Below are positions 59,220-64,000 of a stretch of DNA of 64,000 nucleotides, in pieces. The notes beneath the pieces were generated by a model, which was given only the letters and a program-made list of their open reading frames with translations, made no database searches and was not told where the DNA came from. The position numbers and the translations under genes were made by a program. Source of the DNA: an uncultured Acidimicrobiia bacterium (GTDB taxonomy: Bacteria; Acidobacteriota; Terriglobia; Versatilivoradales; Versatilivoraceae); NCBI GenBank assembly GCA_963786955.1, contig CAWBAT010000003.1:288001-352000 (forward strand). Direction: 5' to 3'. Each line of letters starts with the position of its first letter. The stretch's first letter is position 1.

Positions 59220-60689
59220 TTTAAATTGGCTGGTGAGTCTTCGTTGGTTTACAAGAGAGCTCTCTTGGTAAATACTCGGATGTCTTTTCATCTCACTGTT
59301 CTCCTGGTGATCTCTCCAAATGGCTTCCCAATATTTGAAACTTGCTTGATAACGACCCGCTCGGCTGATGAATTCCTTATGGAGTCTGGGATTCAAGGGT
59401 CTGGTCGTGGCTCCCCTTCAAACCATCGTCATCCTCATATGGGGGTGTCTCCCACTCTTTCTCAGAAATACTTCATTTTTCTTCTTCTACTCACTAATGC
59501 GAGAAAAGCGAAGTCAGGGGGCCCAAAGAAAACAATTTTTTTTGCTTGATACATCCATTAAAATTCTTGATTCGCGCAACGTCGTATACAGATAAAGAGT
59601 CGAATCCGAGGTTTTTGTGACATCGTTCCGTCGTTTTTCTTTTAGGGCCTCTAGATTTCGCATCGTCGAGCTCGAATACTCAGTGCTCAGTTTCACGGAT
59701 ACCGTCACATATGTTCGCCAGTGAGCGCGCGCTCCCGCCTGCGTTTAAGCGTGCTTCGGAGCGCCCGCTCCACCCCACTCCGTTGGCAGCTCGAAGCTGT
59801 GTTACCTTATTTCTGAAATGGAGAACCATGTTGCAGAAGTTCGTCCTGTAGCCGGACACGCGTCAGTTGGCGGAAGACTGGCCGGGGGTCAGCGATCCCG
59901 GGTAAGACATTTGGGCATAATTTGGGAGTCGGCCCTTGGCTACTTAGATCAAGCTTGTTCATGGTTTATCCCTCCATGCGATCAGAGTGGGCAACCTATG
60001 TCTGCAGCGAATCACGGAATTGTCATGATTCTGTGATATTGTCTGAAGGCTGCGTGGTCATATCTCATCCATCGAATCCGAGATCAGCGATTCTCGGCCA
60101 CAACTAGCTTCTCCTTCGCGGTTAGTGTTATTACACGGACATCTTGTTCACTTTTCCTAAATGGACTTTGGTAGCGCAGACCTGATTTCTAGGTCTGCGG
60201 TATCTAATCTTAATGACTCCTAATGTGATTTTCCTTTTCGATCCCACTGTAATTGGAATGGTTGTGAAGTGCTTGAAGGAGAGGTCAAGAATGTGTGGGG
60301 TTCTCGTGGAGTTTGTATCCTACGCTGCGAAAGGTGAGGATTCATTGGGGGTGATCCGGTACCGTCTCGATTTACTTGCGTGACGTGGTCACGTGCGAAT
60401 TGACGATGGAAGCGCTTTTCTGGGCGATTGCTGTCCCCCGATGTGGCTACATGCTTGCTGAGTGTGGAAAGGCAGCTAACCGTTGGGAGCGTGGAGGTTC
60501 CCCTCACCTGGTCCTGACGGATCACCCTTATAGTCGGTACAACAGGGTTGCCCGAGGATGAGTATATGAATAGCCGTCGTAGCGTTTCTTCTTTTTTGCC
60601 TCTTTTTTCTTTCTTTGTGGAAGCTGTGGATTTTGTGCAAAAGCCATGAAGGCCAACAGAACCATACCCCTCGTTGAGGGAATTGGGAT

Positions 60690-60860
60690 TAAATGGAGGG
60701 GTTGTCACCCGCCATCCTCCCGTTACGAACAAACCACCCGATCGTGCGACGATCAGGGAGAGACTTTCGAACGGGAGGGGGCTGGAGCTGAAACGCATTC
60801 TCAGAGGCTGCCCCGAGAGGACTCCCCTATAAGGGTTGCGCGGGCCCCAGCTGGCGAGGT
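60690..60860 (+). ncRNA. Bridge RNA (target-binding and donor-binding loops)
   Basis: Guides accaccc 60733-60739, gggagag 60756-60762, ctcagagg 60800-60807 and ctataag 60827-60833 lie within two stem-loops. RNA ends are approximate. Confidence 0.8.
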
Positions 60861-60892
60861 TCCTTCTCTTTATCCTAGAACGGGAGGAGATC

Positions 60893-62169
60893 ATGAGTTC
60901 TGATTCTGAAATTGCTGCCTTCATTGGTTTAGATTGGGCCGACCAACAACATGTCATTTGTCTGCGGGCGGCCGGCTCTGGTCAGGTCGAATCTCTAGTG
61001 GTGGACCAAAAACCGGAAAGCCTGCAAGCTTGGATCCAGCAATTGCGACTGCGATTTGGGGGCCGCCCGGTAGCCATCATCCTGGAGCAATCGCGGGGCG
61101 CCTTGTTGTATGCCTTGATGGACGTGGACTTCTTGCGGCTCTATCCAGTCAACCCTCTAACCTTGGCCAAGTTTCGCAAAGCCCTCTATCCCAGTGGCGC
61201 CAAGGATGATCCCACCGATGCCGCGCTCTTGCTGGAACTGCTGGAGAAGCATCGGGAGCGCCTCCGCGTTTGGGTTCCCGACGACCCCGACACCCGCTGC
61301 CTGCGCCTGCTCAGCGAAGCGCGACGCAAGCTGGTCAACCAGAAGACCGCTCTGACCAACGAGGTCACCAGCCTGTTGAAAGGCTATTTCCCTCAAGCCT
61401 TGTCCTGGGCGGGAGATCCCGACACCTTGCGGGCTTGTGATTTTCTGCAAAAGTGGTCCAGTCTGGATCAGCTGCGCCGGAGTTCCAGGACCACTCTGGA
61501 GAAATTTTACCGCCATCACGGTTGCCCCTCGGGCCGGTCGATCGACTCACTGCTGGAAGAAATTCGCCAGGCTCAACCCCTGACGCGAGACCCCGCCGTC
61601 ACCCGGGCCTCAGCCCTGATGGTGCAGGCCTTGATGCGCCAGGTTCGGGACCTGATCGAATCGATCTCCCAATTTAACCAACAAATCAAAGAGCTGTTTG
61701 AAAAGCATCCCGACTACGATGTGTTCCACAGTTTCCCCGGGGCCGGGCCGGCTTTGGGCCCCCGCCTCCTGACTTTGTTCGGATCGGATCGGAACCGTTT
61801 TCACTTGGCCTGCGAAGTACAGCTCTTGTGGGCATCGCCCCAGTCACCGAAAAAAGCGGCAAGTCCCATCGGGTCCATTGGCGGTGGGCTTGTCCGAAAT
61901 TCTTGCGCCAAAGCGTCCAGGAATTCTCGGAACAGTCGATTCGCCGTTCCCTGTGGGCGCGGACCTGCTATGACCGCCTCCGCGCGGCCGGCAAGTCTCA
62001 TCACGCGGCCCTGCGCGCCCTGGGCTACAAATGGCTTCGGATCATGTTCCGCTGTTGGAAGGAGCATACACCATACGACGAACAATATTACCTGGCTACC
62101 TTGCGGCATCGTGGGTCTCCCCTGGGAGAAGCATTGTCCCTCACAACCACGGAGACCATTTGTGAATAA
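60893..62169 (+). CDS. IS110 family DEDD recombinase (frameshift ~61828)
   Basis: IGLDWA, LEQ, KDDPTDA, FPGAGP; second frame GIAPVTEKSGKS. GGGAGGAG RBS. Confidence 0.92.
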
Positions 62170-62642
62170 ATTGTCATTTTCCTGTGCAAATAATAGTTGA
62201 CTTATCACCTCAGAGGTCTCTCCCGCGTTTGGGAGAGGGAAGCCGAAAAGTTGAAAAAGTGTGGTTTAGGTCGCTGGGAAATCAGCGAGCGGTGAGATCG
62301 GTTTTGATCTTGGGCAGAAAGTGTTCCACCACCCAGATGCATGCGGCATCGAACCCCCTGTTTGGAAGGCGATGTGTTGAGCGTCGAAACTGGCATATTG
62401 GACACGAAAATCTTTGGCATCCTCCAAGAAGACCTCTTCCTCCGCGGTCTCGATGGAACACCGGTAAACCCATTGCTCGTGTCTTCCTTTCTTGTAGAAG
62501 AAGTGCCGGGAATCATTGTCCAGGGCCAAACTTGGTGTTATTTCCTTCCTAATCACTCTTTCGTTTCCTTTTTTCACACCTTTGCTAAAGAAGTGGGGGA
62601 GATTAGCTTTCACCAAAACTACTGGAGGATGACAATTCTACT

Positions 62643-64000
62643 TCAAAAACTATACTTCAACCCAAACTGAATCTGACGCGCTGGATTGGATCCGTAAATG
62701 CGACCAAAATTCGGCGAGTCGAAATTGGTGTCTGGGTCGTAGAGGTTGACATTGTTGAACGCGTTAAAGAACTCCGCTCGAAACTGGATACGATGGCGCT
62801 CCTTGATGGTGAAGTTCTTAAAAAGCCCTAGCGTCCAGTACTGGTATCCAGGACCGATGATGATGTTCCTCCCGGCATTCCCGAAAGTATAAGGAGCTGG
62901 CTCGGAAAAAACTGATGTGTCAAACCAGCGATCCGCCGTGGGATTACTAATATTGGGATTCCCATTCACATTCGGCCGCTGGGTGACATTACGTGCGCCG
63001 ATGTTGGCGATATCCCGGTAGGTGAATACCCCAACCGGCGCCCCGGAACCGGCTGTCACGATTCCGTTGAACTGCCAGCCGCCCAGGATTTGGTTGGTAC
63101 CTGCTTTCATGTCTGTGCCGAATTTCTTGCCCTTTCCGACTGGAAGTTCGTAGACGAAGCTCATGGCAAAGATGTTCTTGTGGTGGAAATACGATAGCGC
63201 TCGGTCGCACTCGATACAGGCAGGATCCTGTGGCGAGCTGCTCAGCGAGAACCCGTCTCCTCCCGTATCGATATTGCGGCTGAAGGTGTAGGTGCCCATG
63301 AAAGCCAACCCATCCGAAAAGCGCTTTTCCGCCTTCAACTGCAATCCGTTGTAAATGGAGCTGGCAATGTCTGTCATCAAGCTGGTCGCTCCCAGATTGG
63401 TAAACGGCCGGCGTGACTGGACATCTCCCGGTCCCGGAGGCGCCGTGTTGGCATTGGCAAAAACCGAGGCTTTGGAACCCTTGGTGCCGACATATCCGGC
63501 TTCCAAAATGATATTCCCGGCAACCTGTCTCTGCACATGGACGTTCCACTGCTGCATATAACTCACCCGGCGATTGCGGTCCGCAATGTGCTGGGCATCC
63601 GGTGGGACATTTGTGCCAGGGCCCGTCGAGATGTCCGATGAGAAGGTTGTCTTCAAAGGGGAATTGATGACTGTTTGATTTAAGTTAGTCAGGGCCTCAC
63701 TGATGGCGAACGGCCAGTTCCCGCGAATCCCCTGAGCTTCCCACAGGAAGTTGGTGTTGTAAAACTTTCCGTAGCCGGCTCGAATCGTCGTCTTGGGGTT
63801 CAAGAGATAAGATACCCCGAAGCGAGGAGCCCAGTTGTTCTTATCCGGAGAAATGACCGTGGGGAAAGTGTTCGGTGGCTCTGCGGTGATGGGGTTGGTA
63901 GCTGCCCAGATGTAGTTTCCGGTATCGAGGTCGAAAGAACCCAACCGGTTGTCCCGATCTCGAGGCCACTGGGTATAGTCATAGCGCAACCCCACGTTCA
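62643..64000 (-). CDS. TonB-dependent receptor (Oar-like), C-terminal part
   Basis: GLRYDY, NWAPRFG, FGNAGRN, FRAEFFNAFN, ARQIQFGLKYSF. Confidence 0.92.
   Translation of the reverse strand, partial: NVGLRYDYTQWPRDRDNRLGSFDLDTGNYIWAATNPITAEPPNTFPTVISPDKNNWAPRFGVSYLLNPKTTIRAGYGKFYNTNFLWEAQGIRGNWPFAISEALTNLNQTVINSPLKTTFSSDISTGPGTNVPPDAQHIADRNRRVSYMQQWNVHVQRQVAGNIILEAGYVGTKGSKASVFANANTAPPGPGDVQSRRPFTNLGATSLMTDIASSIYNGLQLKAEKRFSDGLAFMGTYTFSRNIDTGGDGFSLSSSPQDPACIECDRALSYFHHKNIFAMSFVYELPVGKGKKFGTDMKAGTNQILGGWQFNGIVTAGSGAPVGVFTYRDIANIGARNVTQRPNVNGNPNISNPTADRWFDTSVFSEPAPYTFGNAGRNIIIGPGYQYWTLGLFKNFTIKERHRIQFRAEFFNAFNNVNLYDPDTNFDSPNFGRIYGSNPARQIQFGLKYSF

Follow-up and report, generated by a model that had tools for sequence, protein, structure and literature searches.

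A stretch of 64,000 nucleotides from an uncultured Acidimicrobiia bacterium (assembly GCA_963786955.1, contig CAWBAT010000003.1), referred to here as the window, contains an insertion sequence (IS) of the IS110 group. The element is about 1.69 kb long, lies at positions 60527-62219 and has the dinucleotide CT at each junction. It is very probably a bridge-RNA element, one of three near-identical copies, that is guided into hairpins resembling repetitive extragenic palindromes (REPs). This reading is carried by the anatomy of the element, by an RNA structure that relatives conserve with compensatory changes, by the covariation of four guides and by precise insertions bounded by CT.

Bridge RNAs were described in 2024 and are predicted in 85.7% of IS110 group elements (PMC11208160). 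All sequence-readable hallmarks of an IS110-group bridge-RNA element are found here, apart from a single open gene, a form that is not seen in the window copy. Since the kind is already described, the element adds a member to it and leaves the bridge-RNA concept unchanged. What it offers is a clean, naturally covarying clade, useful as one more orthologue for tool mining, in which the right target guide has 7 nt and the right donor guide is contiguous. The part of the finding that could matter is a non-coding cassette in the left end, which merits its own follow-up.

The element and its recombinase gene

The recombinase gene is read in two pieces. The N-terminal piece matches PF01548 (DEDD) over profile positions 1-155 of 155 (E 3.5e-27), and the recombinase matches NCBIfam NF033542, 'IS110 family RNA-guided transposase'. 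The C-terminal piece lies out of frame with the first, behind a -1 shift near 61829, and has a weak match to PF02371 (Tnp). When aligned with eight open relatives, the two pieces together span the full protein minus about two residues at the break, and the D, E, DxxD and Ser-Gly columns are conserved.

The protein is distant from the recombinase of IS621 of Escherichia coli. A phmmer search of the half protein against solved structures gave no match, and only a profile of the clade reached the IS621 recombinase (8wt6, E 1.6e-15) and ISCro4 (9t56, E 1.3e-13). The GxD, KxDxxDA and Ser-Gly motifs align with the IS621 recombinase, the first stretch weakly.

Relatives with 44-69% protein identity were gathered from the element's own genome, related genomes and named contigs of metagenome-assembled genomes (MAGs); the records of the named relatives are labeled Terriglobia, Bryobacteraceae and Acidimicrobiia MAGs. 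A scan of the genome collection gave 6 relatives only, and an order-level search matched 5 of 31 genomes, the own genome included. The latter (9 contigs, 5.65 Mb) holds three full copies with identities of 100, 99 and 98%, together with two diverged relatives.

A second IS110-type element (L024) lies in the same genome at C4:27.1-29 kb, with the guides ACTTGCC-C and AGCCCAG. At G000:C8:261.3-262.4 kb there is a 5'-truncated relic (L021) in which the donor loop is kept and the target loop is gone.

Structure of the bridge RNA

A consensus fold of 11 relatives (RNAalifold) contains 36 pairs, 23 of them with compensatory change. It consists of an outer helix and of one helix for each loop, target and donor, each with its own inner hairpin. 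The outer helix (helix 1) encloses both loops, and 5 of its 6 pairs are compensatory. One small helix within the donor loop is without covariation and may be spurious. The earlier note on this DNA, made from the letters alone, had quoted its guide strings from within 60527-62219, where all of them are found in place. It had also proposed the IS621 layout: two internal loops, left guides equal to the top strand, right guides complementary, and the RNA in the long left end. The consensus fold and the covariation bear this layout out, and each of the four pairings takes in the CT core.

A covariance model made from the left ends of the 11 relatives, as the note had suggested, matches the window copy (G000:C3:348708-348860) with 128.7 bits (E 2.7e-28). 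In the own genome the model finds the three copies, the second element and the truncated relic. Among phylum genomes, 3 of 151 were matched, the own one included, and the match was full-length in 2 of 150 others.

The model was also run on 80 metagenome loci selected on different grounds, namely the mirror repeat described below, from among the matches listed; it matches 14 of them. In the 13 distinct RNAs of these loci, 93.3% of cells are paired, a share that falls to 26-45% if the partners are shifted by 1-3 columns, and 22 of 36 pairs are changed on both sides. None of 500 shuffles attained the observed values, although the alignment was fitted to the model, a bias in the model's favor. It is the relatives, not the single copy, that establish the predicted RNA structure.

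Some smaller observations concern the RNA region. The string AACGGGAGG occurs twice, at 60770-60778, where it is the 3' half of the stem of the target loop, and at 60879-60887 in the ribosome-binding region, 6 nt before the ATG, so that the 5' strand CCTCCCGTT (60716-60724) could pair with either site. By eye, the relatives do not have this duplicated arrangement, and it may be due to chance. In L022 (G003:C12, ~2730-2900), a second, partial bridge-RNA-like stretch with a target-loop stem and a donor loop lies directly downstream of the recombinase gene, which suggests tandem or nested copies.

Covariation of the guides

The two loops are organized in the same way in every element. The first loop repeats the left flank, followed by C, on its 5' side and has on its 3' side the reverse complement of CT with five bases of the flank. 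In the second loop, the right tip recurs on the 5' side, and the reverse complement of CT with the left tip stands on the 3' side. Within the 64-kb window, the four guide strings of the element are found 4 times (ACCACCC), 7 times (GGGAGAG), twice (CTATAAG) and twice (CTCAGAGG, both within the element). The guide strings are beyond chance because cognate matches in the relatives are far above the non-cognate ones; a single copy does not show this.

For the scoring, each site was compared with the loop of its own element and with the loops of unrelated elements, every offset being allowed in both. Non-cognate pairs with loops differing at 3 or fewer of 16 positions were dropped. Five metagenome loci in which the patterns detected no loop, tip or right end, mostly on cut-off contigs, yielded one site of the two or neither and were left out accordingly (for the left side L081, L095, L085, L082 and L091). 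The left guide (7 nt plus C) fits at least 7 of 8 positions in 14 of 22 cognate sites, compared with 10 of 454 non-cognate pairs (2.2%). The right guide (CT plus 5) fits at least 6 of 7 positions in 16 of 17 cognate sites, compared with 17 of 339 non-cognate pairs (5.0%); the single miss is L094, with 4 of 7. The window family matches on the right at 7 of 7, three times. The test of guide against flank that the earlier note had called for is thus answered on both sides, and its 7-nt right guide holds. Such a guide is not new: some IS110 orthologues have a right target guide longer than that of IS621 (Durrant et al. 2024, PMC11208160).

The donor side behaves alike. The left donor guides CTCAGAGG, CTCAGATG, CTCAGACA and CTCAGATA each fit their own right tip. 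In L038 the tip CT-ATAG is accompanied by the loop guide CTATAG, and L037, judged by eye, fits its own right flank only if two G-U pairs are allowed. As far as the letters can tell, all four guides covary with flanks and ends across the relatives, and from this natural covariation the specificity would be programmable.

At the level of sequence, two bases past each right guide lengthen the match to the post-insertion junctions. On the target side, GGGAGAGAC (60756-60764) is the reverse complement of 62216-62224; on the donor side, CTATAAGGG (60827-60835) is the reverse complement of 60525-60533. All relatives retain an A past the right target guide and the T that ends the left donor. In IS621, such 'handshake' guides match the post-insertion junctions (PMC11208158).

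One relative departs from the simple plan. L038 (G114:C77) has two tandem target-binding-loop modules on the reverse strand, at ~1340-1410 and ~1501-1575, whose left guides are TTCCCACCC in one and TTCCCGCCCC in the other. The first module suits the left flank of L038, CTCCCACC-CT, and the other could be a spare or a second target specificity.

Insertion sites and the REP-like hairpin

The three copies have nothing in common beyond their shared CT...CT edges. Their insertion sites read GGATCACC-CT-CTCCCGC, CTCCCATC-CT-CTCCCCC and TGGCCACC-CT-CTCCCCA. The complete site of copy 3 has an uninterrupted paralogue at C6:776144 (...GGCCACC-CT-CTCCCCAAGGGAGAG...) in the same wider context. For copy 2, there are several uninterrupted paralogous sites in C7, C5 and C6 (e.g., C7:86677, minus strand). 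Taken together, the flanks of the three copies and the uninterrupted sites show that insertion is precise, with one CT per side: it is scarless at the CT core and involves no further duplication.

Copy 2 itself lies in a larger repeat with at least five copies, including C4:199491-201400, C5:453000-453250, C6:650550-650800 and C7:86500-86760. This repeat has two different long hairpins ~160 nt apart, adjoining a conserved GCCGCCCTGGGTCAGC stretch.

All three insertions are at the 5' shoulder of a CTCTCCC...GGGAGAG hairpin. The pattern CTCTCCC-N3-40-GGGAGAG has 84 matches over both strands of the genome, that is, 42 loci, of which 20 are of the 20-nt form; by our own arithmetic from genome counts, about 4 loci would be expected by chance. 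Many loci also agree in their surroundings, where CCCCTCACC precedes the hairpin or its complement follows it, and where another small hairpin is present. The hairpins are mostly extragenic: the longest spanning open frame has a median of 118 aa at hairpin loci and of 379 aa at 400 random places, and a frame of at least 150 aa spans 26% of the loci but 82% of the random places. Contigs of another sequencing run (loose ends of X2) show the element in a further hairpin of this type, CT-CTCCC-ACAA-GGGGAGAG.

'REP-like' is a fair name for what reads as a repeated, palindromic and mostly extragenic family, although the family is small, and its copy number is low for a REP family and far below that of classical REPs. 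The proposal that the element is aimed at a host REP is supported in a milder form: the target is the shoulder of the mostly extragenic CTCTCCC-N-GGGAGAG hairpin, with its 42 loci. The left guide of the window family matches its three sites at 5-6 of 8. REP targets of IS110 elements had already been stated (PMC11208160).

Junction promoter and proposed mechanism

A promoter scan of the linear sequence found no sigma-70-like site. This is expected if the promoter exists in the circle only. Joining the right end to the left end would give TTGACT-N17-TATAGT, a candidate promoter that could form only in the circle, and the relatives conserve its two halves as TTGACA-N17-TATAGG. A promoter is likewise rebuilt at the circle junction of IS621 (PMC11208160, PMC11208158).

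By analogy with IS621, the element would excise as a circle, whose joined ends would make a promoter for both the bridge RNA and the recombinase. Pairing would then take place between the donor loop and the circle junction CTCAGAGGT-CT-TATAG and between the target loop and (A)CCACC-CT-CTCCC, and the recombinase would exchange strands at the CT core. The natural targets would be the 5' shoulders of CTCTCCC...GGGAGAG hairpins, a small REP-like family. Transcription, formation of the RNA-protein complex and present-day activity are presumed on the same analogy.

A soil metatranscriptome contig from run X19 (500 nt, 95% alike) spans 60695-61194, a stretch that takes in the bridge RNA together with 300 nt at the start of the gene. 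Coming from an RNA library, it is a weak hint of transcription, and may be DNA carry-over.

Contrary evidence and alternative explanations

Several results weigh against the reading as a guided bridge-RNA element. The gene is intact in none of the three copies as assembled. The single-sequence fold of 60690-60860, another check that had been proposed, did not by itself reveal the structure: the centroid keeps the stem of the first loop and just that stem, the z-score of -1.51 is not distinctive, and the donor loop is absent from the minimum free energy structure. Rfam returned only a chance match on 59500-63000 (Six3os1_3, E 0.34), and no family fits. The left match of the window family (6, 5 and 5 of 8) is the weakest in the data set. 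The scored sites are not independent, as the three window copies share their RNA and the loci L020/L009/L025, L099/L118 and L041/L090 likewise go together; the distinct guide sets number about 13. No unoccupied site in the genome fully matches the guides, the best free sites reaching 5 of 7 left positions.

Each copy is broken in its own way. Copy 1, in the window, has one C missing near 61829 (-1), and in copy 2 a G has been added near 61146. Several indels are found in copy 3, which has also lost one C of the left target guide. Some of the frame-breaking indels are outside homopolymers. The window copy is either decayed or mis-assembled. The four runs searched consist of contigs, which are uninformative on RNA ends or levels, and parts that they leave uncovered carry no meaning. 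Contigs of run X1, the run that represents the element best and possibly its source, have the additional C at 61829 and no additional G near 61146. A contig of run X3, 96% alike, spans 60500-61863 and differs from the window by only two gaps, both distinct from the indels of the sister copies, and the C at 61829 is present. None of the other indels occurs in the contigs of X1 or X3. Runs X1, X2 and X3 also have a T at 60588 that the mirror repeat of the window copy is without. The X1 and X3 contigs may derive from sister copies; they show that an intact reading is present in the population, and a mis-assembly of copy 1 is not thereby shown.

These data bear on the alternative that survives best, namely that the RNA is read correctly and the family is dead in this genome, the three copies being pseudogenes left by past activity with nothing moving now. 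Each copy's own frame-breaking indels, the guide base lost from copy 3 and the lack of a perfect free target all suit it. Against it, the copies are 98-100% alike, and copies 1 and 2 have a single break each, at different places, both of which are read through by contigs of other runs. Moreover, with 9 contigs for 5.65 Mb, long-read indel errors within a repeat would be possible, and the second, different IS110-type element has an open gene of 433 codons. We regard extinction as a real possibility, though a doubtful one.

Far less can be said for recognition by protein-DNA contacts alone, in which the matches between loops and flanks would be coincidental or remnants of targets in the left end. 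Nothing beyond the modest left match of the window family (5-6 of 8) speaks for it, whereas guides and flanks shift jointly over the roughly 13 guide sets, and the guides lie in unpaired loops framed by compensatory helices; we consider it very improbable. Scarcely credible at all is an element of the IS1111 group or seekRNA type with its guide RNA in the right end: the protein family is the same, but the right end has 48 nt against 364 nt in the left end, and it is in the left end that the structured two-loop RNA sits.

Relation to known systems

The guided bridge-RNA element is closest in plan to IS621 (PMC11208160, PMC11208158). Shared with it are a recombinase with DEDD RuvC-like and Tnp(Ser) domains, an RNA in the longer left end, and a target loop placed before the donor loop, the left guides having the sequence of the top strand and the right guides its complement. 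The CT core in all four pairings, the handshake bases past both right guides, the circle-junction promoter and the insertion into palindromic repeats are also common to both. The two differ in the right target guide (7 nt here, 4 in IS621) and in the right donor guide, which is contiguous here (CTATAAG) and discontiguous in IS621. The left end is 364 nt long here and 191 nt in IS621, and the extra ~180 nt contain a hairpin and the mirror-repeat cassette.

ISPpu9 and ISPpu10 of Pseudomonas putida, and other REP-targeting IS110 elements, are likewise reported to insert at one position of repeated extragenic palindromes. Here the host phylum is another one, and the repeat is small (42 loci) and of different sequence. 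With the IS1111 group and seekRNA elements, the window element shares the recombinase family and the RNA-guided logic. The right-end RNA and long subterminal inverted repeats reported for the IS1111 group (PMC11208160) are not seen in it. The clade may already be catalogued in the orthologue supplements of the bridge-RNA papers.

Coordinates of the window copy

Table 1. Features of the IS110-group element and its flanks, in window positions.
Feature	Position	Strand	Remark
Left target flank GGATCACC	60519-60526	+	Part of REP-like element; paralogous REP-like sites known in genome
CT core, left junction	60527-60528	+	Same CT bounds all three copies
Left tip TATAGT	60529-60534	+	-10 half of candidate junction promoter
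Left non-coding end, 364 nt	60529-60892	+	
Cassette	60571-60642	+	NAN-type triplets, mirror repeat, DnaA-box-like 9-mers
NAN-type triplets (TAG, CAG and similar)	~60571-60584	+	
Homopyrimidine mirror repeat	arm 60585-60597, spacer GCCTC 60598-60602, arm 60603-60616	+	13/14-nt arms
TGTGGA/TGTGCAAAA DnaA-box-like 9-mers	60616-60642	+	
Predicted bridge RNA, ~153 nt	60708-60860	+	Covariance-model match over all 157 model positions
Target-binding loop	60716-60778	+	Closing stem, both target guides, inner hairpin, handshake bases
Target-loop closing stem CTCCCGTT/AACGGGAG	60717-60724/60770-60777	+	Retained in single-sequence centroid fold
Left target guide ACCACCC	60733-60739	+	6/7 to ATCACC+C
Target-loop inner hairpin	60740-60754	+	GATCGT 60740-60745/ACGATC 60749-60754
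Right target guide GGGAGAG	60756-60762	+	Exact reverse complement of CT+CTCCC
Handshake bases, target loop	60763-60764	+	
Donor-binding loop	60778-60851	+	Stem GGGGCTGG/CCCCAGC; 7/7 stem pairs with compensatory change
Left donor guide CTCAGAGG	60800-60807	+	
Right donor guide CTATAAG	60827-60833	+	Exact reverse complement of CT+TATAG
Handshake bases, donor loop	60834-60835	+	
Recombinase, N-terminal part, 311 codons	60893-61825	+	DEDD RuvC-like domain and coiled coil
Private -1 frameshift of window copy	61826-61829	+	Sister copies and X1/X3 contigs: one C more, C for T at 61826
Recombinase, C-terminal part, 113 codons, other frame	61828-62169	+	Tnp domain with conserved Ser-Gly
Right non-coding end, 48 nt	62170-62217	+	
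TTGACT	62197-62202	+	-35 half of candidate junction promoter
Right tip/left donor CTCAGAGGT	62209-62217	+	
CT core, right junction	62218-62219	+	
Right flank CTCCCGC	62220-62226	+	
CT core and right target, hairpin CTCTCCC-GCGTTT-GGGAGAG	62218-62237	+	REP-like; element inserted in its 5' shoulder

The mirror-repeat cassette

Between the left tip and the RNA, all close relatives have a common cassette, composed of triplets, a mirror repeat and two or three 9-mers of the TGTGGA type; the left end of IS621, with its 191 nt, would be too short to accommodate it. The mirror repeat has the form T3CT3CT5-6, a 5-nt spacer and T5-6CT3CT3. Variant arms are still mirrored, as in L024 (CTCT3CT6/T6CT3CTC) and L038 (T5CT3CT2CT7/T7CT2CT3CT5). 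A metagenome scan for the repeat found it in at least 119 contigs. The scan pattern permitted unequal arms; nevertheless, in the 72 distinct contexts among the matches listed, the T-runs of the two arms are 5/5 in 41 and 6/6 in 30, so that 71 of 72 are equal and a single one is unequal. Such kept mirror symmetry would argue for a triplex-type structure. The cassette is conserved better than the adjoining transposase genes.

The repeat is not confined to IS110 elements. In the 80 metagenome loci introduced above (L040-L119), the nearest transposase within 900 nt was sought by tblastn with six adjacent open frames and the IS110 half protein of the window; the six frames were scanned against Pfam, except the rve frame of L072. 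Among these listed matches, the nearest transposase is IS21 IstB at 15 of the 80 loci, IS110 at 12 (with 2 more farther off), IS3 (rve and HTH_21) at 11, IS481-like at 7 and another rve at 2; at 33, many of them at contig ends, there is none within 900 nt. The cassette is thus common to four unrelated transposase families. In our sample of 401 phylum genomes, the exact pattern occurs in 1, the own genome, where it is confined to the IS110-type copies.

The placement of the cassette follows a rule. In the DDE families, the repeat follows the last gene, and its purine strand has the same sense as that gene. In IS110 it precedes the gene, and here it is the pyrimidine strand that has the sense of the gene. 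Consequently, the triplet side faces the nearest terminus in all families, at a distance of 57-280 nt from the cassette. Near-identical IS21 copies on five contigs lose their likeness 196-205 nt past the mirror repeat. The corresponding point lies at 87-88 nt in IS481-like copies (seven contigs) and at 279-280 nt in a pair of IS3 elements. These divergence points place the cassette inside the IS21, IS481-like and IS3 elements. A shared insertion target beside the elements is ruled out, since the copies remain alike well past the repeat. Two different IS21 elements have in common only a stretch of 230 nt around the cassette, with 86% identity.

The DnaA-box-like 9-mers are enriched. The motif TGTGNAWAA, the reverse of the DnaA-box consensus, has 20 matches in the 150 nt past the repeat at 45 non-identical loci, 16 of them within one 10-nt bin, and 0 in the control stretch. 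The NAN triplets of the metagenome loci were recognized by eye.

In the basal unwinding system of replication origins, DnaA box(es) and a spacer of at most 16 bp are followed by at least three NAN trios (Pelliciari et al. 2021, PMC8287927). The cassette shares the DnaA-box-like 9-mers and the NAN triplet repeats with it, but is found in IS ends rather than at oriC. As a basal unwinding system it was rejected, because its boxes and triplets are 31-33 bp apart, with the mirror repeat between them, against the rule of at most 16 bp. With the mirror repeats of H-DNA (PMC11667243) it shares the homopurine/homopyrimidine mirror repeat. A coding sequence is excluded as well, as the total arm length varies by +2 (5/5 vs 6/6) and the frame is not kept. 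Rfam gave nothing on 13 cassette loci.

IS3, IS21 and IS110 elements are all described as going through circular or junction forms. One speculation, which we consider unlikely as it stands, is that the cassette might be a portable non-coding module of IS ends, exchanged among circle-forming insertion sequences and acting at the DNA level through a triplex (H-DNA) and/or DnaA-dependent unwinding or replication coupling. In more general terms, the near-perfect mirror symmetry and the sharing by four families point to a host-interaction or DNA-structure function at IS ends. No description of such a function, or of the cassette itself, was found in the literature searched by cassette features and sequence strings.

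At two metagenome loci, L081 and L095, a form of the cassette with TTTCCACAGG upstream lies 1.1-1.5 kb before the IS110 bridge RNA, where it is probably the end of a neighboring element beside the IS110 copy.

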